Assembly: GCA_030656075.1 (NCBI GenBank) | Contig: JAUSOT010000047.1 | Location: 10 to 64,009 of the forward strand | Length of the DNA stretch: 64,000 nt | Origin: Candidatus Cloacimonadales bacterium | GTDB lineage: Bacteria > Cloacimonadota > Cloacimonadia > Cloacimonadales > TCS61 | Direction of reading: 5' to 3' | Shown: in pieces, positions 48,352 to 56,760 of the stretch | Layout of the letters: every line of letters begins with the position of its first letter | How positions within the stretch are numbered: the stretch's first letter is position 1 | Notes under the pieces: generated by a model | What the model was told of the DNA's origin: nothing | The model's database searches: none | Seen by the model: the letters and a program-made list of their open reading frames with translations, nothing else | Position numbers and translations under genes: made by a program

Positions 48352-48612
48352 CAACCCCCTCGCTCCCCCTATTGAGGGGGAAGAAAACTATCATTACATA
48401 CATCTCGTTCCAATGCTCCAGCGTTGGAATGCTGCATCTCCGCTCCGGCGGACTTTAAATTAAAACTTTGCCGCATTTCATTCTCCCAACCCCCTCGATC
48501 CCCCTTGACAGGGGGAAGTAAACGATCATTACTTACATCTCGTTCCAATGCTCCGGCGTTGGAATGCTGCATCTCCGCTCCGGCGGACGTTAAATCCAAA
48601 CTTTGGCACATC
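48352..48612. repeat. tandem duplication (period ~135 nt) of a three-hairpin composite unit
   Basis: Unit 1 starts at 48352 and unit 2 at 48487. Each contains CAACCCCCTCG.TCCCCCT...AGGGGGAAG, CGTTCCAATGCTCC.GCGTTGGAATG and CTCCGCTCCGGCGGAC. The units are roughly 90% identical by eye. Confidence 0.8.
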
Positions 48613-48653: not shown

Positions 48654-49871
48654 TTACTCATTTCGAATGATCTTGATCGGATCGATCTTCACTGTGCGCC
48701 GGGCAGGATGAAGCGTTGTCAGGAAACTGATGATGATGGCAACCAATGGTCCCAAAATGAAATCTGTCGTGCGCATTTCCACCGGCAGCCATTGCAGCGG
48801 AAAACCGGGAACCGGGATCAGGATAAAATGCCATTTCAATTGAGCGTAAAGCAGTCCCGAAGCCAGAACCAGCGCGATCAAAGCACCCATCACTCCGATG
48901 ATCACACCGATGTTCAGAAAAATTTTTATAATATCTTTTTCGGAAGCTCCCAAAGCTTTCAGTACTCCGATTTCAGTTTTTTTTTCCGCCACCAGTTTGA
49001 TGAAATTTCCGGTCATGTTGAAGGAAGCGATGATGATCATCAACGCCAACACCAGGAACATGATGACTTTCTCCATCTTGATGGCATTGAACAGATTGGC
49101 ATCAAACACGCTCCAATCTTCCACCAGAAATTCCGACCCTAACAATTCCTGGATTTTACGAGCATATTTTTTCGAGTTTTCGGAATTGACCGACTTAATT
49201 TCGATCTGGCTGACTTCGTTTTGGTAGCCGAGAAAATACTGAGCATTCTGCAGTGAAATGTAGGTGTAAACCTGGTCGTATTCCGGCATACCGGAGACAA
49301 AAATTCCCACCACCTTCAACTTTTTGCTTTTGGGCAGCAGACCAAATGGCGTCGGCTCCGTGCCAAGCGGCGACATCAACTGAACATATTCGCCCACCGT
49401 GGCATTGATCGTGAGGGAAAGATCGAGACCGATGATGATGCCGTCATTTTGCAGGCTTTCGACGGTGGGAACTCCCACTACCATTTTTTGGACGAGACCG
49501 GTGATGCGTGTCTGAGAATCAAAATCGATGCCAAAACATAAGTTAGAACCAAGATTGTTGCCTTTTTGGATCATCAATTCCATTTCACACACCGGCGCTG
49601 CGGCAACCACTTCCGGTAATTCCGTTATCTGCTTTGTAATTTCATTATAATCGGAGATTGGATTATATTCTTTTTGATGAACTTTAATCTCAGCTTTGGA
49701 ACCCACCACCCTATTTCTCATATCACTGTCGAAGCCGTTCATCACCGAAGAAACGACCAACAGTGAAAAAACTCCGATGATGATGCCGCCCATGGATAGC
49801 AGGTTGGAGAAAGTGAAAAATATCTTCTTCCTGCCTTTCAGATATTTGAGTGCGAGTTTTAAGTGGAACAT
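48654..49871 (-). CDS. LolC/LolE-like lipoprotein-releasing ABC transporter permease (MacB-FtsX family)
   Basis: 405 aa with MFHLKLALKYLKGRKK, a periplasmic domain, and a C-terminal FtsX TM bundle ending PARRTVKIDPIKIIRNE. Confidence 0.8.
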   Translation of the reverse strand: MFHLKLALKYLKGRKKIFFTFSNLLSMGGIIIGVFSLLVVSSVMNGFDSDMRNRVVGSKAEIKVHQKEYNPISDYNEITKQITELPEVVAAAPVCEMELMIQKGNNLGSNLCFGIDFDSQTRITGLVQKMVVGVPTVESLQNDGIIIGLDLSLTINATVGEYVQLMSPLGTEPTPFGLLPKSKKLKVVGIFVSGMPEYDQVYTYISLQNAQYFLGYQNEVSQIEIKSVNSENSKKYARKIQELLGSEFLVEDWSVFDANLFNAIKMEKVIMFLVLALMIIIASFNMTGNFIKLVAEKKTEIGVLKALGASEKDIIKIFLNIGVIIGVMGALIALVLASGLLYAQLKWHFILIPVPGFPLQWLPVEMRTTDFILGPLVAIIISFLTTLHPARRTVKIDPIKIIRNE

Positions 49872-49899
49872 TATTTATCCAAGCCTATCTTCATTTTAT
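49838..49899. repeat. direct repeat copy A (lolC first 34 nt plus 28 nt upstream)
   Basis: 62 of 62 nt identical to 51023-51084. Similarity continues with mismatches to about 49917 / 51102. Confidence 0.9.
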
Positions 49900-51012
49900 G
49901 AAATTCCCTTTTTCATCATTTTCCTCTATTAATTCTTTCAGTTGTTGTTTATCTGGCAGGATTGTTTTGTATTTGCTGGCAAAGATTTGCTCATTATCTT
50001 CTGGCAAGGTCATTCTCACCAAAGCGTTTTCTTTCTGTTTACAAAGAATAATTCCTATGGTTTTATTTTCATCAGCCATTTTTATTTCTCGGTCATAGTA
50101 GTTTACATACATTTGCATTTGACCCAAATCCTGGTGCCTCAATTCACCAATTTTTAAATCGATGATTACAAAACATCTTAATAGCCGATTGTAAAAAACC
50201 AGATCAATAAAGAAATGCTTCTCTTTAAAAGTCATCCGTTTCTGTCGGGCTACAAAAGTGAAACCTTTTCCTAATTCCAATAGAAAATGTTCCAATTTAT
50301 CGATCAATCTGCTTTCTAAATCTGATTCGGAATATTTTGCATGCTCCGGCAATCCTAAAAATTCCAAAATATACGGTTCTTTAACTGCATCGGCTGGTTT
50401 TGAAATGATTTGCCCTTTTTGTGAGAGTTCTTTGATAGCCTCTTTATCTTTACTCAATACTAAACGTTCGTACAGAGCAGAATCAAATTGTCTCTTCAGT
50501 TCTCTTAAACTCCAATTATTTGTATGAGCTTCAATTTCATAAAATTTTCTCTCTTCGAAATTCTCTATGCGCATTAAGAAAACGTAATGTGACCAACTCA
50601 AAATAAATTCCGCAGACGATGTCTGCGTTTTTCCTACTTCAAATTCCCCAGACACTGTCTGCTGTTTTTGTAATTCCCTCGACAGCATTGAAGATTTCTT
50701 CTTTTCTAATTCCGCAGACATTGTCTGCGGAATTGAGTAAGTTAGATAAAAGAACTTCATTTGCTCAAGATTACGCACAGAAAATCCCCTGCCAAATTCT
50801 TTTATAAGTTTTTCAGACAGGTCTTCTAATATTTGCTCCCCATATTCTGCACGTTTTTCTCCGCCCTGTAAATGCTCTACGATTATTCGTCCAATCTCAA
50901 AATAGGTACAAACCATTGTGGAATTGATGGAACGAATAACCTGGGAGCGAGCGGTTATTATCAGTTCCTTTACTTCGTGAAAAATGTTTTTTTCTATGTT
51001 GTTCGAATTCAT
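49891..51012 (-). CDS. DUF1016 / YhcG-family PD-(D/E)XK nuclease (copy 1)
   Basis: 373 aa. N-terminal domain ITARSQVIRSINSTMVCTYFEIGRIIVE...GFSVRNLEQMKFFY, and a C-terminal nuclease core FIDLVFYNRLLRCFVIIDLKIGELRHQDLGQMQMYVNYY (D..(D/E)xK). Confidence 0.8.
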   Translation of the reverse strand: MNSNNIEKNIFHEVKELIITARSQVIRSINSTMVCTYFEIGRIIVEHLQGGEKRAEYGEQILEDLSEKLIKEFGRGFSVRNLEQMKFFYLTYSIPQTMSAELEKKKSSMLSRELQKQQTVSGEFEVGKTQTSSAEFILSWSHYVFLMRIENFEERKFYEIEAHTNNWSLRELKRQFDSALYERLVLSKDKEAIKELSQKGQIISKPADAVKEPYILEFLGLPEHAKYSESDLESRLIDKLEHFLLELGKGFTFVARQKRMTFKEKHFFIDLVFYNRLLRCFVIIDLKIGELRHQDLGQMQMYVNYYDREIKMADENKTIGIILCKQKENALVRMTLPEDNEQIFASKYKTILPDKQQLKELIEENDEKGNFIK

Positions 51013-51022
51013 TTGTTTCCTC

Positions 51023-51084
51023 TCAGATATTTGAGTGCGAGTTTTAAGTGGAACATTATTTATCCAAGCCTATCTTCATTTTAT
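51023..51084. repeat. direct repeat copy B (pseudo-start of lolC fused to the DUF1016 gene)
   Basis: Identical to 49838-49899. It encodes a 15-codon leader MFHLKLALKYLRGNK whose TGA overlaps the DUF1016 ATG. Confidence 0.9.
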
Positions 51085-51250
51085 AAAACTTCCTTTTTCA
51101 TTTTTAAGCCAACTTATTGATTCCTTTTTTTTTAACAATCAATTCTAGCAATGTTCAAGCACGCTGCGGAATCAGCATGATTCCACCAAAGCGAACCAAC
51201 TAACGTTTGAATCGGCACGATTCAAACAAAACAGACGGATAACTCTACCG

Positions 51251-53170
51251 GTAGAGTAGAAACAGGTTAACCAGTAGGAAAACCTGTAACCCTCATCAAA
51301 CCGTACGTGCGGTTTTCCCGCATACGGCTTTCCAACAAGATTCGTCTCAGGCATTCACAAGTGTCAAACAAAAGTATATCTCGCCGGATCTATCAATCCA
51401 TAATGACTGACTAAATAGGCGAATGCACTACGGCGATAGAGCTTACACTTTCGCTGACTTTTACGCTGAAAAAATCGATAAAAACTTTCATCAAGATACC
51501 AATGAAGTTTACCTTTCGCTGTACTGGGATAACTAATTCCTCTTATCGAGAAATAGTTCAACCAACCCCGGATGATTGGATTTAGTGTTCGGGTAATTGC
51601 TTCCGAACTGAAATGGCGACAATACCGAAAAACTTTCCTAATCTTCTCTCGAATTTTAAGCTCGCTCTTCTTGCTTGGAACAACATTCCAATACTTACCA
51701 TTATTGCCATAAATCCCTCTATCATATCGGAAAGTAAATCCCAGAAAATCAAATGATTCTTTTCTGGCGTCAATTTGTTTTGTCTTATCTGTATTTACAT
51801 CTAACTCCATCTTCTCCAACATCTTGTTAAGATATTCCAACGATGCTTCAGGTAGTTTTCTACCCATCAGAATGAAATCATCTGCATAGCGGATCATTGA
51901 AATTCCATACTTGTAAAAGTAACCATCTTTTCGTGCCACGGCTTTATCCAATAAATTCAGATAAATATTCGCCAGCAGTGGAGATATTACACCTCCCTGT
52001 GGAACACCTTTTCTACTTTTATGAAGTTTGTTATCTTCAAAAACTGTACATTTGAGCCATTTCTTGATGAGATTTATAACCCGCTTGTCTGAGATTCGTT
52101 TCTCAAGCAAAATGAGTAATTTATCATGTGGGATATTATCGAAAAATCCCGATAGATCGGCATCATACACATTAGTATTCCCACGCTTAAGATTAGATTT
52201 GATTTCAGTGATTGCTCCTTTGGCTGAACGCTTGGGTCGAAATCCGTATGAACAGTCTTCAAAATCGGCTTCGAATACAGGCTCTATAACCATTTTACAA
52301 CTCATCTGAACTATTCTGTCTCTTATTGTTGGAATCCCGAGAGGCCGCATTTTTCCATTTGCTTTAGGTACGTAAACTCTCAATATCGGCTGAGGTTTGT
52401 AGGTCTCTGCTTTTAGCTCTTCTGCCAGTTCCCTGAGATAGCTTTCGACTCCGTATTCCTCAATTTCTAAAAAGGTTACTTTGTCGTATCCAGGTACTCC
52501 TTGGTTGGCTTTTACACGTTTCCATGCTTCGAATAAGAAATGTTGGAGGGATATTTTGTCATGCATTACATAAAAACAAAACTCCTTCTCTTGCTTGGCT
52601 TTGAGATATATTTTACGTTGAAATGATCGCACTTTTCCGGTTCCGCTTAACGCTTTACCAGGTTTATCTTTTAGATTTTCATCAATCACAAAATGCTCCT
52701 TTTCTTGTAAAATCTCTTGAAGCAATGCCCCTTCGCTCCTTCTGAGTTATGTTGTCTCAAATATCAACACTACTATGGGCATCTCCGACTGCCTATATGC
52801 CTGATTTTCATTTCGGATTTCCTTATAGAAAACCATTTAAGATTGCCATTCTTTAGCATAAAGGCTCTCTCACGTTTATGATGTTATCATTCTTAAACAC
52901 GCCATCAGTTACAACTCCGGCAGCCCTCAACAGTGCTCTTTTCCGTTGCTTCCTGTTGAGTTGCAGACTTCGTCTCACCTGAGGAACTCGTCGGCTGCAA
53001 ATTACATTTAACGAAGCTAATCTGTTCGCTTTCGCTACGGCTTATTTAATGCTAAAAAGAGCTTTGACCGATCCGTTACCGGATCAAGCCATCTTCCTTG
53101 CTTCCATCTGAACGGAAAATTAGATGGGTTGGATTTGAACCAACTGACAATATCACACTTCGTGACGCAC
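51251..53170 (-). mobile_element. bacterial group II intron (about 1.9 kb, RT/maturase ORF in domain IV)
   Basis: The 5' end is GTGCG (complement of 53166-53170). Domain V is AGCCGTATGCGGGAAAACCGCACGTACGGTTT (complement of about 51299-51330). Domain VI and the 3' end read ...CTACTCTAC, with the 3' boundary good to about +/-10 nt. The intron sequence CAGGTG (complement of 52976-52981) is complementary to the last 6 nt of the 5' exon, CACCTG. Confidence 0.8.
51364..52725 (-). CDS. group II intron reverse transcriptase/maturase (no endonuclease domain)
   Basis: 453 aa. Has RT motifs incl. RPLGIPTIRDRIVQ and YADDFILMG, and a maturase X region RGWLNYF. It ends without HNH/En motifs. Confidence 0.9.
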   Translation of the reverse strand: MLQEILQEKEHFVIDENLKDKPGKALSGTGKVRSFQRKIYLKAKQEKEFCFYVMHDKISLQHFLFEAWKRVKANQGVPGYDKVTFLEIEEYGVESYLRELAEELKAETYKPQPILRVYVPKANGKMRPLGIPTIRDRIVQMSCKMVIEPVFEADFEDCSYGFRPKRSAKGAITEIKSNLKRGNTNVYDADLSGFFDNIPHDKLLILLEKRISDKRVINLIKKWLKCTVFEDNKLHKSRKGVPQGGVISPLLANIYLNLLDKAVARKDGYFYKYGISMIRYADDFILMGRKLPEASLEYLNKMLEKMELDVNTDKTKQIDARKESFDFLGFTFRYDRGIYGNNGKYWNVVPSKKSELKIREKIRKVFRYCRHFSSEAITRTLNPIIRGWLNYFSIRGISYPSTAKGKLHWYLDESFYRFFQRKSQRKCKLYRRSAFAYLVSHYGLIDPARYTFV

Positions 53171-53193
53171 CAGGTGCGATGTTAGACGACCGT
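53171..53193. repeat. left terminal inverted repeat of the ORF328 cassette
   Basis: GATGTTAGACGACCGT (53178-53193) is the perfect reverse complement of 54191-54206. The outer CAGGTGC matches GCACCACCTG at 54214-54223. Confidence 0.8.
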
Positions 53194-54168
53194 TTTTCGT
53201 TTATACTCATTAATACCTGTATTAAACAAATCTTGAGCAGAAATATTTTTATTCACTGAAAAAAGCAAATTATAAATCTCAAAAAAACTGTTTTCATCAT
53301 AATTTCTCATTTTGTAATTATGCTCTAAACCAGCTTCTCTTAGGACAAAACGATTATAAAAACTACAAAGATTCTCGTAGGCTTTGTAAATAATGTTAAA
53401 ATCATTTGAAGAAATATCCGACTCATTATTTAACATTTTATTTTTAAACAAATCAATTAAAATGTGAGTTCCCGTTTCGTGACAAATAAATTGGATAAAC
53501 CACTCAGTGTCTGAATTATAATAAAACCAATTCTTTTCGTAACCGAGAGAATTTGCTGACGGTCCGTTTTTTATTCCAGTACTCAAAACAATATCGTAAT
53601 AAGCGTATTTAAAATTAAGTTTTGTTACATCTTCCCACAGCTTTATAAAATTAAATTCTGATAACCGATTGCTGAGAGTATTAATTTTTTCTCGAATTTT
53701 TTCTTTTTCTATTGGCCAAACATCATTTAGAAAATTATCAAAATTTTTTATGTAAATTTCAGAGATTCGCTTAATTTCATTGTTAAAACTGTATAGGTGT
53801 GAATCAAAATTTGGTTTAAACCAGTCTTTAAGATTAGAAATGTAAGATTGATATTTATTTTTAAAATTATTGAAAGAATGCATCTCAATAGATTTGTTTA
53901 GTAGATTAAAGTATGTTTCGATTTCATTTATATTTTTAAGATTAATATAATTTGGGAAAAAGATAATTAATTCTGTTAGCTTACTCATTTGGCCGTCTCC
54001 CCATTTAAGAAGATTCTTGTTCTCTTGTAGGAATTTTAAATCTATCGAATCAATACTATCAAAATAAGTCTTTGAATAATCACTATCGAATCCGATTTTT
54101 GCTACACTCAAAAGATGAGCATTATAATTTGAAAATATCTCGTATTTTAATCGAATTATCTTATTCAT
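53182..54168 (-). CDS. hypothetical protein (very AT-rich; contains CHETGTH, an HExxxH-type motif)
   Basis: 328-aa uninterrupted ORF, Asn/Lys/Phe-rich. No family recognised and the metalloprotease idea rests on one motif only. Confidence 0.5.
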   Translation of the reverse strand: MNKIIRLKYEIFSNYNAHLLSVAKIGFDSDYSKTYFDSIDSIDLKFLQENKNLLKWGDGQMSKLTELIIFFPNYINLKNINEIETYFNLLNKSIEMHSFNNFKNKYQSYISNLKDWFKPNFDSHLYSFNNEIKRISEIYIKNFDNFLNDVWPIEKEKIREKINTLSNRLSEFNFIKLWEDVTKLNFKYAYYDIVLSTGIKNGPSANSLGYEKNWFYYNSDTEWFIQFICHETGTHILIDLFKNKMLNNESDISSNDFNIIYKAYENLCSFYNRFVLREAGLEHNYKMRNYDENSFFEIYNLLFSVNKNISAQDLFNTGINEYKRKTVV

Positions 54169-54190
54169 TATAGATATCCATATTCTGCTT

Positions 54191-54223
54191 ACGGTCGTCT
54201 AACATCCATACTTGCACCACCTG
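54191..54223. repeat. right terminal inverted repeat of the ORF328 cassette
   Basis: ACGGTCGTCTAACATC, a 7-nt insertion, then GCACCACCTG. Confidence 0.8.
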
Positions 54224-54292
54224 TTTTGTTGCACCTAACTAACCTATAGTTAGGGTAATTTGTTGTACATTACCTTTTCCCTATTTACTTCT

Positions 54293-54369
54293 TCGCCAGA
54301 TATTTCTCGATTACTTTTTCATAAAAGCCCGGCAATTTATTTGTGATGAAATTAGTAATGTTTTTCAGA
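54293..54369 (-). pseudogene. relic 3' end of a GT4 glycosyltransferase gene
   Basis: My translation is ...NFITNKLPGFYEKVIEKYLAKK*. Compare the C-terminus of the intact GT4 gene at 55510: ...QIIAEKILDFYQRVIEKYRVG*. Confidence 0.45.
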
Positions 54370-55395
54370 TCAACCCTCATTTATGATGATTTCTTCAATT
54401 TGATGAATTAATTGTTCTTCTTTAGGTAATATGTAAGTGTATCTTGAAGCAAAAACTTTATTTGATAAACTGCCAAGAATATATTCGGCTGCGATTTCAT
54501 CTTTTTCTGCACAAATAATAATTCCTATTGGTGGATTGTCATTCTCTTCATTTACTTCGGTTTTGTAATAATTCAAATATGTATTCATTTGTCCACCGTC
54601 AGTTATTTGTAATTTTCTTGTTTTCAATTCGATTAAAACATAAGATTTCAGGATTTTATTATAGAACACCATATCTACAAAATAATGTGTGTTGTTTATT
54701 GTAATTATTTGCTGTGAGCCGAGAAACATAAATCCTTTCCCCAACTCAAGCAGGAAATCTTCTATATGTCTTATCAATTTTCTTTCCAAGTCTTTCTCTA
54801 AAATCGGTTTGTTTTCAGGAATACCCAAGAATTCAAAAACATACGGATCTTTTGTTATATCATCCGGTTCTCTGATTATATTACCTTCTTGCGCTAATTT
54901 AATGATTTTATCTTTATTATTCTTTCCTTGTGATAATAATAGTCTTTCAAATAAGGAACTGTCTATTTGTCGTTTAAGTTCTCGAACAGACCAATTTGCG
55001 TTTTGGCATTCTTTTTCGTAAAATGCTCTTTTATTAGAATCCGAGATCATTAATAATTCACAGTATTTTGACCAACTAAGATGTCCAGACAGCGTCTGGA
55101 CACGTGAATAATGTAAATACAACTTTCTCATATTAAACAGGTTAGCTCGCGAAAATCCTTTACCCAATCTTTCTGTTAGAATTTTAGAAATCTGTAAAAT
55201 TATTTTTCGACTTGTCTGATCATCGACATTAGAATTTGTTTCTTTTTCTATAATAACTTTTCCAATATTCCAATAAGTAACAAGTAGTTCAGTATTTATA
55301 TTGGCTTTAATTCTGTTGCGTGAATTCTTAACCAGATTATGGATTTCTTCTATTAACTCAGTTACATCTAATCCTGCTATCGTGTTAATTTCCAT
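54370..55395 (-). CDS. DUF1016 / YhcG-family PD-(D/E)XK nuclease (copy 2)
   Basis: 341 aa. Has GFSRANLFNMRKLY, LSWSKY, WSVRELKRQIDSSLFERL and the nuclease core FVDMVFYNKILKSYVLIELKTRKL...GQMNTYLNYY. Confidence 0.8.
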   Translation of the reverse strand: MEINTIAGLDVTELIEEIHNLVKNSRNRIKANINTELLVTYWNIGKVIIEKETNSNVDDQTSRKIILQISKILTERLGKGFSRANLFNMRKLYLHYSRVQTLSGHLSWSKYCELLMISDSNKRAFYEKECQNANWSVRELKRQIDSSLFERLLLSQGKNNKDKIIKLAQEGNIIREPDDITKDPYVFEFLGIPENKPILEKDLERKLIRHIEDFLLELGKGFMFLGSQQIITINNTHYFVDMVFYNKILKSYVLIELKTRKLQITDGGQMNTYLNYYKTEVNEENDNPPIGIIICAEKDEIAAEYILGSLSNKVFASRYTYILPKEEQLIHQIEEIIINEG

Positions 55396-55509
55396 TTATG
55401 TCTCCAGATAAATTTCTTCTAAAAAAACCAGCCTCTATTTACATAAAATCGCCGCATAATAACATTTCCAGGTTGAAAATCATCCAACTCTTCAACCAGT
55501 TATTTCTGT

Positions 55510-56760
55510 TTATCCCACCCGATACTTCTCTATCACTCTTTGATAAAAATCCAATATTTTCTCCGCGATGATCTGGCAGCAATAATTTCCGCACACTTCC
55601 TCATAAGCGTTGTGGATCAGCTTCACGCGCAGATCGGGATGATCTTTCAATAAATAGTACTTTGCTGCTAAATCTTCCAATGAATCATTTTGATAGAAGA
55701 GCCCGTTGTGTTTTTCAGTGATCAAATTCTGTAGTCCGCCCACTTTATGAGCAATCACCGGCAGACGGCTGGCCCAGGCTTCCAGGGCAACAATGCCGAA
55801 CGGTTCCTTTATAGACGGCAAGATGAAGAAATCTGCGGCGTGATAGGCTTTCACCAGTTCGGGGTCATCAGCATTCAAACCCGGAATGATCGTAATCCTG
55901 TCTTCCATGTGCAACTCCTGGATTCGATGCTGGATTTTTTGATAATACGATTCGGAAGCGATCTGCCCGATCAGCAGCAGATGAGTGCTTTTGTGTTTTT
56001 GGTTCAGAAGATTCACCAGTTCAACCAGTTTTAATTGATTTTTCTGCGGATCGATTCTACCGGCACACAAGATGATATCCGCATCGTTATTGATATTGTA
56101 TCGTTCTCGAAAATGCCGGCTCGGTCCGATTTTAAATTTATCTATATCCACTCCGTTGGGAATGTACTCCACGATTTTATCGGGATATCGCTGCTGCAAT
56201 ATCCGGCACTCATCCTTTCCCAGGCAGAGAATGCCGTCCGCATCCTGCAAAGCATTCCTGGTTTTCAGCAGGCTGTCGAGCAGTTTTCCATAATGCAGAG
56301 TTCCTTCCAGGAGCATTTCCATCTTCTCATTGCCGGTTTCGGGAGTTTTGTTTTGGGCTTCAAACAGCGAGATCACATAAGGAATTTTCTGCTTTCGGGC
56401 TGCCAGCCGCACCAGGTTCGAAAGCCTCTGAGGAGCGTGGCTGTGCAGGATGTCAACTCCCGGTGACCTTTGCAGATAACGATACATTTGCCAGGAATAG
56501 GGATTGCCGTCTTTCTGGTCGAAAGCTGCTTTGGCTTCATCCGAAAGATTGAAATAGGGATAGAAATATTCAAAGCGTTTGATGGGAACATCTTCGATAA
56601 ATTCGCCAGCCATTTCAGATTGAACTTTCGTTGACAGAATCTCAGTTTGAAAACCTTTCTTCCGGAAGCTGCGGCTCATATTCCAGACGAGACTCTCACT
56701 TGCACCCAAATCATCAAAAGCAAGTTTTCCAATTATTTGAATGGAGCGTATATTATTCAT
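55510..56760 (-). CDS. glycosyltransferase family 4
   Basis: 416 aa. The C-terminal half has FILPSIKEPFGIVALEAWASRLPVIAHKVGGLQNLI, an EX7E-type GT-B motif. Confidence 0.8.
   Translation of the reverse strand: MNNIRSIQIIGKLAFDDLGASESLVWNMSRSFRKKGFQTEILSTKVQSEMAGEFIEDVPIKRFEYFYPYFNLSDEAKAAFDQKDGNPYSWQMYRYLQRSPGVDILHSHAPQRLSNLVRLAARKQKIPYVISLFEAQNKTPETGNEKMEMLLEGTLHYGKLLDSLLKTRNALQDADGILCLGKDECRILQQRYPDKIVEYIPNGVDIDKFKIGPSRHFRERYNINNDADIILCAGRIDPQKNQLKLVELVNLLNQKHKSTHLLLIGQIASESYYQKIQHRIQELHMEDRITIIPGLNADDPELVKAYHAADFFILPSIKEPFGIVALEAWASRLPVIAHKVGGLQNLITEKHNGLFYQNDSLEDLAAKYYLLKDHPDLRVKLIHNAYEEVCGNYCCQIIAEKILDFYQRVIEKYRVG

Follow-up and report, generated by a model that had tools for sequence, protein, structure and literature searches.

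Genes of the YhcG/DUF1016 family contain an ancient DNA palindrome that is in frame, fixed in position and present family-wide in at least seven phyla. The element was followed up from two family members encoded in a 64,000-nucleotide stretch (the window) of contig JAUSOT010000047.1 of a Candidatus Cloacimonadales bacterium (GenBank assembly GCA_030656075.1). The conserved entity is the symmetry of the DNA, and the encoded peptide follows the arms: it is symmetry and not peptide that is retained, because the covarying arms change amino acids. The inverted repeat is a coding palindrome in that both arms are translated within an intact open reading frame (ORF), stems are in excess over codon shuffles and compensatory changes are seen. 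That a nucleic-acid-level constraint, rather than the peptide or chance, underlies the element we take to be almost certain. A full-text literature search on DUF1016/yhcG palindromes, in which journal coverage was incomplete, returned no earlier description.

Both window genes are members of the YhcG/DUF1016 family. Copy 1 (49891-51012, minus strand, 373 residues) and copy 2 (54370-55395, minus strand, 341 residues) encode proteins of 41% identity having a DUF1016_N domain (PF17761; 132.2 and 133.6 bits, respectively) and a YhcG_C PD-(D/E)XK nuclease domain (PF06250; 196.6 and 187.4 bits), the Pfam gathering cut-offs for both domains being ~32.5-32.8 bits. The copy 1 protein is 100% identical to a Candidatus Cloacimonadales protein from a metagenome-assembled genome at NCBI. 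By profile match (PADLOC PDLC04807, E = 1e-140 for copy 1 and 2e-122 for copy 2) both genes are assigned to the phage-defense candidate PDC-S02.

The initial annotation of the window had placed four palindromes in these genes. All are present, and translation gave the peptides that it had listed. Unit 1 of copy 1 (50708-50734, minus strand) is a 27-nt perfect palindrome, AATTCCGCAGACA-T-TGTCTGCGGAATT, which is read in the sense direction as ATT CCG CAG ACA ATG TCT GCG GAA TT and encodes IPQTMSAEL. Unit 2 (50649-50661, minus strand; CAGACA-C-TGTCTG) is read as CAG CAG ACA GTG TCT GGG GAA TTT and encodes QQTVSGEF; its stem of 6 bp is ended by a G/G mismatch at position 7. The proximal unit 3 (50611-50627, minus strand; CGCAGAC-GAT-GTCTGCG) lies directly 5' of the codons for LSWSHY and is read as ACG CAG ACA TCG TCT GCG GAA TTT, giving TQTSSAEF. 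The three units form a linker array (50602-50737, minus strand, residues ~93-137) with spacings of 36 and 66 nt and direct-repeat families D2, D3 and D7. Copy 2 has a single unit (55082-55102, minus strand), TGTCCAGAC-AGC-GTCTGGACA, directly 5' of LSWSKY, with the sense reading GTC CAG ACG CTG TCT GGA CAT and the peptide (R)VQTLSGH. One claim required correction: the units had been located between the N-terminal and nuclease domains, whereas those of copy 1 are an insertion inside Pfam DUF1016_N, in a loop between the helix of residues 79-92 and the LSWSHY helix. Residues 96-133 of copy 1, which include all three units, have predicted local distance difference test (pLDDT) values below 50 in an AlphaFold model of mean pLDDT 63.

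The motif CAGAC-N3-GTCTG (CAGACNNNGTCTG) has four matches in the 64 kb vs 0.02 expected, a count reached in 0 of 100 shuffles, and all four are confined to the two YhcG/DUF1016 genes, in agreement with the earlier observation that both genes keep a CAGAC...GTCTG palindrome. When codons were shuffled synonymously with the protein fixed and each gene's own codon usage retained, none of 5000 shuffles of copy 1 gave either three CAGAC-N3-GTCTG motifs or a 13-bp stem, and the 9-bp stem of copy 2 was reached in 10 of 5000.

Nearly all of the best 120 protein homologs (62-69% identity; from Bacteroidota, Cloacimonadota and Ignavibacteriota) have one to four tandem units just before LSWSHY. The homologous loci gathered were 80 from species-representative genomes, 80 from metagenomes and 16 copy-2-like loci from viral contigs, using search patterns distant from the palindrome motif; the sample is therefore unbiased for the palindrome. 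Perfect hairpins were counted in the linker (the 60 codons upstream of LSWSHY) of 65 genes from genomes, 75 from metagenomes and nine of the copy-2 clade, with within-gene synonymous-codon shuffles as control. Linker stems of at least 8 bp numbered 47 in the genome set (shuffle mean 2.7 ± 1.6), 51 in the metagenome set (3.1 ± 1.5) and six in the copy-2 clade (0.3). The excess was also seen for longer stems: 31 of at least 9 bp in the genome set (shuffle mean 0.9) and 28 of at least 10 bp in the metagenome set (0.2). In the rest of the gene, stems of at least 8 bp were at shuffle level (eight vs 11.6 in genomes and 13 vs 12.6 in metagenomes), and the excess is therefore restricted to the linker. 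The initial annotation had proposed that its reading would fail if synonymous shuffling reproduced such palindromes or if other family members had none at this motif. Shuffling did not reproduce them, either in copy 1 or in the three homolog sets (more than 10-fold excess), and the palindrome is family-wide.

A perfect linker stem of at least 7 bp is found in 108 of 165 non-redundant genes, singly in 83, twice in 20 and three times in five, and the longest is 18 bp. Units are ~19-37 bp in length with the typical spelling (A)AWT-NNN-[C/G]AGACA-n-TGTCT[G/C]-NNN'-AWT(T), and a gene has zero to three perfect units (about five in one upstream array, that of locus L108). In 129 of 131 odd-loop cases the center of the palindrome is the first base of a codon. 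Such a near-invariant codon phase argues for a single ancient homologous element and against repeated insertion. Conservation is wide for the inner core [C/G]AGACA-n-TGTCT[G/C] and for the flanking AATT; distant clades have unrelated cores. In plasmid and viral homologs of only 27-50% identity the homologous site is again palindromic, with arms of unrelated spelling: TGCCAAACA-c-TGTCTGGCA in Nostoc (CQTLSGK), TCCGAGACA-c-TGTCTCGGA in Pseudomonas (SETLSRK), GTGCCGACA-a-TGTCGGCAC in Legionella (VPTMSAQ), GTGCAGACA-c-TGTCTGCAC in Burkholderia (VQTLSAQ), TGTCGTGAC-gct-GTCACGACA on a Shewanella IncP plasmid (IVVTLSRQ), GTCCAACAG-c-TTGTTGGAC in Deinococcus (VQQLVGQ), TTGCGGCAC-agccc-GTGTCGCAA in Meiothermus (FAAQPVSQ) and ATTGACGCA-c-TGCGTCAAC in Clostridium (IDALRQQ). 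A paralog of 32% identity has TCTCGCACCA-c-TGGTGAGAGA, encoding ILAPLVREI.

A 27-nt position weight matrix built from the units gave 216 matches within DUF1016 coding sequences (1.11 per kb), 10 within 300 nt of these genes (0.099 per kb) and five in the remaining 662 kb of flanking DNA (0.008 per kb). Three of these five prolong the upstream arrays of loci L066 and L108, which leaves two truly remote matches in 662 kb. In the flanks and the 64-kb window scanned, the units are almost exclusive to the DUF1016 gene family.

Comparison of arm spellings shows both sides altered together and the peptide altered accordingly. The arms CCGCAGACA/TGTCTGCGG encode PQT.SAE, TCCGAGACA/TGTCTCGGA encode SET.SRK, TCCGCAACA/TGTTGCGGA encode SAT.LR, TCGTCATCA/TGATGACGA encode SSS.MT, CAGTCA/TGACTG encode QS.T, GGGACA/TGTCCC encode GT.S and, in Firmicutes, AATTGGnGAAACA/TGTTTAnCCAATT encode QIGETVFSQF. 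Covariation was quantified in 150 units picked solely by the a priori peptide motif [QE]T.S. Paired cells made up 76.3% of the total vs 21-43% when the partner column was slid; the covariation score was 0.302 vs 0.116 ± 0.007, a value reached by none of 500 shuffles; and 291 cells were altered on both arms vs 139 in shuffles. In the same units, stem position 6 is CG in 89 cases and GC in 39, position 7 is CG in 49, GC in 45, UA in 24 and AU in eight, and position 8 is CG in 80, GC in 25, AU in 18 and UA in seven. Pairing exceeded the synonymous-resampling expectation both at position 4 (0.75 vs 0.21) and at position 7 (0.81 vs 0.27). The effect on the protein is direct. Among 120 independent homologs, when the motif is QT.S with Q encoded by CAG, the residue four positions on has a G-initial codon in 76 cases and is R, Q, H, P or L in none, whereas when the motif is ET.S with E encoded by GAG the counts are four and 25 (Fisher p = 2e-20). 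The linker peptide itself looks dispensable, given its low pLDDT and the palindromes that stay perfect where the frame has decayed.

The same pattern is seen within a single species. E. coli K-12 yhcG has three in-frame units, IHQTMSGEL, IPQTPSAEF and IWQTLSAKS, in which 12-13 of 14 positions are Watson-Crick paired, the third unit having in addition one innermost G.T wobble. A fourth, non-coding unit, AATTCTGCAGACAgTGTCTGCAGAAT, lies 16-40 nt after the yhcG stop codon (NC_000913; locus L081, 8971-8996). Positions 7-9 of the four units are CAC/GCG, CCG/CAG, TGG/CCA and CTG/CAG. Between E. coli alleles that are 92% identical overall, unit 1 differs at all three variable pairs on both arms: TTCACCAGACA..TGTCTGGCGAA in K-12 (one mismatch, IHQTMSGE) and TTGTGCAGACA..TGTCTGCACAA in TK3887 (perfect, IVQTLSAQ). 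In unit 2 of the same two alleles, pairs 7 and 8 are swapped. Arm change is thus fast yet concerted. In strain GTEN_24, a single His-to-Arg change (CAC to CGC) perfects the unit 1 stem.

Unit number differs between close relatives, and units within one gene can share idiosyncratic defects (L020). Extragenic units stay palindromic though the reading frame is broken (L108, L066, L049 and E. coli unit 4), and nine of 13 extragenic units lie upstream of a start codon. At locus L049 an identical unit flanks the gene on either side, as part of a 58-nt direct repeat; two units lie upstream at L066, and one separates tandem paralogs at L032. At L108, an array of about five units (1039-1412) lies upstream of the DUF1016 gene with no ORF through it. 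Its fragments, IAQTMFAQFKLSWSH (copy-1 type) and ICQSLSGKLTWTHY (copy-2 type), each comprise a unit and a few codons before a break, as if left as scars by successive rearrangements; the pattern recurs at L066 and L049. In five Lachnospiraceae/Eubacteriales loci (L064, L068, L071, L078 and L153) a clade-specific unit of the form AATTGGGTAGA-cnnct-TCTACCCAATT or AAATTGGCTAAACA-c-TGTTTAGCCAATTT is located ~50 nt before the start codon, over and above the in-frame QIGETVFSQF unit. The latter keeps a G.A mismatch at position 6 and has C:G changed to G:C at position 7.

Some breakpoints fall at units. The yhcG gene was found in 4468 of 5426 complete E. coli genomes, with at least 80% of the gene in 3538. 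In a recurrent truncated allele (four strains among those listed in a spread sample) only yhcG nt 1-406 matches, and the breakpoint is the exact 3' edge of unit 3 (ATTTGGCAGACGCTGTCTGCCAAAT|). Beyond it lie 470 nt of unrelated DNA, followed by K-12 sequence from ~20 nt past unit 4; an ORF of 101 amino acids annotated as a transposase follows the truncation. A second allele is interrupted within unit 3, at nt 385, in association with IS1. Between about -300 and -60 nt, counted from LSWSHY, L061 diverges from its otherwise near-identical relatives, and the right-hand boundary of this patch falls in the proximal unit. Protein sequence N-terminal to the linker evolves much faster than the nuclease portion, with a mean identity 15 points lower (L040, L061, L100 and L107, and all loci), which could reflect diversifying selection or gene conversion acting on a possible specificity module. 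Swapping of N- and C-terminal modules at the palindrome was considered and rejected: the N-terminal part is merely faster, and L061, the one clear mosaic event, is too little to generalize from. Suspected insertions in L032 and L064 proved to be adjacent partial paralogs. Of the functions suggested in the initial annotation (recognition, recombination and self-cleavage), only recombination gains circumstantial support, from the rearrangement junctions at units.

We propose that the element acts as a DNA inverted repeat that would form a hairpin or cruciform. Concerted evolution, with intramolecular template switching (quasipalindrome correction) as its likeliest mechanism, would keep the arms identical, such that a mutation in one arm is either erased or copied into the other, and the flexible protein loop would tolerate the resulting amino acid changes. 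That the protein can tolerate the unit follows from the low-confidence loop it encodes. In proteobacteria, conservation of perfect inverted repeats by template switching is documented (Lavi et al. 2018, PMC5941160). Such switching fits arms that pair strictly by Watson-Crick rules, paired changes that are fast and non-coding copies that persist; we regard it as the probable means of arm homogenization. The whole account, an ancient coding palindrome with arms kept symmetric by concerted evolution and with a role in cis, we judge somewhat more plausible than its negation. The initial annotation had argued for selection at the DNA or RNA level. A constraint beyond the peptide is borne out, and selection is inseparable from mutational homogenization of the arms because template switching gives equally strict complementarity.

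One competitor is a purely selfish palindrome, in which a chance ancestral quasipalindrome perpetuates itself by template-switch correction and slippage, is tolerated because it lies in a loop, and produces junctions through palindrome fragility. The strictly Watson-Crick arms without wobble, which evolve quickly and together, are what such a process would give, as are non-coding copies that stay perfect, a variable unit number and absence from about a third of the genes and from two actinobacterial members; template switching is, moreover, an established means of conserving inverted repeats (PMC5941160). What it leaves unexplained is retention at one codon across at least seven phyla, multi-unit amplification and near-exclusivity to one family, and the remainder of these genes shows no enrichment of comparable palindromes. 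We therefore consider it a minority possibility, though one to be taken seriously.

Since mutational drive alone leaves the retention in one family and at one codon, and the amplification, across at least seven phyla unexplained, we consider a cis-acting role in addition to homogenization likely. Persistence at one homologous codon across phyla suggests that the element is retained also for a cis role tied to the gene. The most plausible such role is that of a fragile or recombinogenic site, which would give rise to unit amplification, mosaicism, fragment scars and cassette turnover of a defense-island nuclease. An adaptive cis function, as a recombination site or as the nuclease's own substrate, is put forward only tentatively.

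The nuclease fold gives some reason to consider the second of these functions. Profile analysis placed the YhcG nuclease domain closest to archaeal Holliday-junction resolvases and YraN (Kosinski 2005, PMC1189080). An extruded palindrome is a four-way junction, so YhcG may act on a four-way structure extruded within its own gene. In a Foldseek search the best match was EndoMS/NucS (E = 5e-4, using the model of mean pLDDT 63); these matches are generic for PD-(D/E)XK on a mediocre model and so say little about substrate. A PDB sequence search with the family profile gave no match. That the palindrome array is a built-in cis substrate or recognition structure of YhcG (a hairpin or four-way junction, of DNA or RNA) is a speculative and rather doubtful extension. 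If true, the structure would control the enzyme through autoregulation or self-immunity, or else would drive diversification and mobility of the gene, as in the unit-anchored fragments, tandem paralogs and cassettes with 23-98-nt duplications.

Whether the units act as DNA or RNA was approached with a codon-aware test in which third-position synonymous choice, given the partner base, was compared with usage in the same gene outside the linker. Watson-Crick pairs were observed 953 times vs 381 expected (ratio 2.5), sense-strand G.U pairs 17 vs 81 (0.21), antisense-strand G.U pairs 97 vs 268 (0.36) and other mismatches 181 vs 518 (0.35). Wobble pairs are no better tolerated than other mismatches on either strand, which is unusual for a conserved RNA helix and favors a DNA palindrome or cruciform, or DNA-level homogenization. 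An antisense-RNA bias suspected from raw G.T vs A.C counts (9 vs 57) was discarded because it is confounded by codon position. Complementarity extends up to a 1-nt center in 91 of 138 perfect stems, pairing that a hairpin could not use; non-complementary centers of 3 nt (17 cases) and 5 nt (21 cases) are also accepted. Action at the DNA level rather than the RNA level thus seems probable.

An RNA element, in which hairpins in the mRNA or, for extragenic units, in the 5' or 3' untranslated region (UTR) would stabilize or process the RNA, pause ribosomes between subdomains, bind YhcG for autoregulation in the manner of type III toxin-antitoxin repeat arrays or terminate antisense transcription, is unlikely and still deserves a hearing. 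The copy 1 linker folds well relative to shuffles as RNA (-52.9 kcal/mol, z = -6.4), and also as DNA (z = -5.4). Extragenic units occupy UTR-like sites (the nine of 13 before start codons and E. coli unit 4 after a stop), and the short tandem arrays lie in or next to a candidate single-gene defense nuclease (PDC-S02). A permissive terminator scan flags units 2 and 3 of copy 1 on the antisense strand, where T-runs follow, and unit 3 also, weakly, on the sense strand. Unit 1, the copy 2 unit and the E. coli units have no T-run and most sense-strand units have no U-tract, so any terminator role would not be a general one. An Rfam search over 49500-55800 (E ≤ 1) returned group II intron families only and nothing at the linker. 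The intolerance of G.U on both strands also stands against RNA, though homogenization could mask tolerance, as does the pairing to a 1-nt center.

A mobile in-frame palindromic element, resembling a Rickettsia palindromic element (RPE) or a miniature inverted-repeat transposable element and repeatedly inserting into a permissive loop, would account for the ~34 additional residues of copy 1 relative to copy 2, which are made of units with inverted and direct repeats, for the varying unit number among close relatives and for the extragenic units. Independent insertions would, however, use all phases and many genes, whereas the phase is fixed in 129 of 131 cases at a homologous site and units are almost never found away from DUF1016 genes (the two remote matches in 662 kb, and none elsewhere in the window). 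The arms moreover differ among units of one gene and covary, and hence are not copies of one master. This explanation is very improbable.

Equally improbable is a symmetric duplex site for a dimeric protein (an operator, restriction-type site or recombinase core) that forms no hairpin. The widely conserved core and AATT flanks and the complementarity that reaches the center would suit such a site, and DUF1016 genes neighbor restriction-modification (R-M) and BREX loci and invertases (PMC9881135). Positions 7-9, however, vary freely yet remain complementary and differ among the three or four units of one gene: a protein that ignored these positions would not enforce their symmetry, and one that read them could not accept all of the spellings. 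Distant clades also have unrelated cores. The restriction-site idea in particular (GACNNNGTC and CTGCAG are present in some cores) was rejected because other units lack these sites. Finally, peptide-level selection or chance, in which the palindrome would be a by-product of the conserved QT.S motif and codon usage, is scarcely credible and is refuted by the shuffling and covariation tests. Many members do conserve the T and S of the motif, and the conserved LSWSHY helix directly adjoins the proximal unit, but shuffles fall more than 10-fold short in three sets (0 of 5000 for copy 1), the peptide itself changes to keep pairing and palindromes persist out of frame.

Several observations weigh against the account we favor, that of a homogenized coding palindrome with a role in cis. 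The 57 of 165 genes without a perfect linker stem of at least 7 bp, together with two high-GC actinobacterial homologs that gave no palindrome at the threshold used, indicate that losing the palindrome need not entail any obvious loss of the gene. The case for a recombination hot spot comes from a handful of junctions; other E. coli breakpoints, at nt 235 and nt 641, are not at units, and some of the metagenomic scars, L108 included, may have been created at palindromes during assembly. Recombination with a diverged allele, rather than one templated event, could account for the three-pair swap seen in E. coli. An RNA function keeps some weight because G.T pairs would be lost to DNA-level homogenization irrespective of function. 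The exceptional status of this family and this codon is not accounted for by mutational drive alone. Extrusion, template switching and YhcG activity on the units are themselves proposals made here from sequence comparison.

The surroundings of the two window genes show signs of insertion. A direct repeat of 85 nt (~95% identical; 49832-49916 and 51017-51101) exactly brackets copy 1 and holds the start and upstream region of a LolC-like permease gene (48654-49871, minus strand). Because it is bracketed by this repeat of the 5' end of the LolC-like gene, copy 1 has the appearance of a single gene inserted as a 1.2-kb cassette, with a long duplication of the target. Eight of 82 DUF1016 genes are flanked by direct repeats with 23-98 identical nt, each set different in sequence, vs 0.3% of control pairs, which suggests insertion of DUF1016 genes in the form of one-gene cassettes. 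Paralogs, close by or in tandem, occur in four of 81 sequences (the window, L032, L045 and L064). DUF1016 homologs occur on plasmids and integrative and conjugative elements (ICEs), and DUF1016 genes are enriched next to inversion-targeted R-M/BREX genes, with invertases among their neighbors (Milman 2023, PMC9881135).

Between the two copies lies a group II intron (51251-53137, minus strand; Rfam D1-D4 at 52907-53137 and domain V/VI at 51251-51332) with a reverse transcriptase/maturase ORF at 51364-52725. A palindrome, CGCACC-t-GGTGCG, is located ~25 nt upstream of the 5' splice site of the intron, and a hairpin with 10-bp arms, GTTTGAATCG-gca-CGATTCAAAC (51205-51227), is just 3' of the intron. 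Between the intron and copy 2 is an ORF of 328 amino acids (53182-54168, minus strand) that has no Pfam or PADLOC match and could be either a partner of the two DUF1016 genes or their cargo. An intergenic 135-nt tandem repeat upstream of the LolC-like gene (48352-48605, 1.9 copies, 89% matches) is spanned by spurious ORFs on both strands.

If our reading is right, the symmetry of a nucleic acid, rather than protein function, has for a very long evolutionary time dictated some of the sequence of a protein, and has done so in a family of genes found in thousands of bacterial genomes, plasmids, ICEs and defense islands. The family would provide a natural system for the study of palindrome persistence, arm homogenization, amplification and rearrangement, and since E. 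coli K-12 yhcG has three units plus one extragenic unit the proposals can be tested directly by standard genetics. The units also provide a lead to the substrate and biology of YhcG/DUF1016 (PDC-S02). Note that a caution for annotation follows: the conserved QT.S motif would be largely a translated DNA element, and its covarying residues would reflect base pairing rather than protein contacts.

Palindromic DNA within genes has precedents. RPEs were reportedly found in frame in protein genes by Ogata et al. in 2000. These elements are ~100-150 bp, mobile and dispersed in many unrelated genes of one genus. They share with the YhcG units palindromic DNA that is tolerated in frame in surface or loop regions of functional proteins, whereas the YhcG units are found in one gene family at a fixed site and codon phase, with two remote matches in 662 kb. 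Repetitive extragenic palindromic (REP) sequences, bacterial interspersed mosaic elements and intrinsic terminators are likewise short stem-loops that contain GC, are flanked by A/T-rich sequence and in some cases form arrays. REPs are imperfect palindromes and require a REP-associated tyrosine transposase (RAYT). Elements of these kinds are extragenic, whereas the YhcG units are mostly within an ORF, mostly lack sense-strand U-tracts and are perfect to a 1-nt center. In type III toxin-antitoxin systems, the ToxI repeats function as RNA; they fold into pseudoknots and precede the toxin gene. Like the YhcG units they are a tandem array of structured repeats linked to a nuclease gene in a defense context, and the 36-nt spacing in copy 1 recalls ToxI; the YhcG units differ in being mostly translated, in being simple palindromes and in lacking the wobble tolerance expected of RNA.

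Quasipalindrome correction is said to go back to Ripley in 1982. With the inverted repeats conserved by template switching, the YhcG units share perfect complementarity, absence of wobble and concerted multi-nucleotide changes (PMC5941160). The repeats of Lavi et al. 2018 are, however, non-coding proteobacterial sequences, and that study reported no gene-family-specific, in-frame, phylum-spanning case with amino acid covariation (PMC5941160). The closest coding parallel is in hairworm mitochondrial genes, which contain coding palindromes with perfect inverted repeats of up to 284 bp (2019, PMC6649704). There also the repeats are in frame with both arms translated, a compromise between protein and secondary structure (PMC6649704). 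The hairworm repeats are long and lie in conserved protein regions encoded by many mitochondrial genes of one animal lineage (PMC6649704), whereas the YhcG units have arms of 7-18 bp and occur, amplified in tandem, at one codon position in a low-confidence loop of one bacterial family across phyla. What is new relative to all of these systems is a short palindrome, held at one codon and phase in one bacterial family across phyla, tandemly repeated and dictating amino acid covariation.

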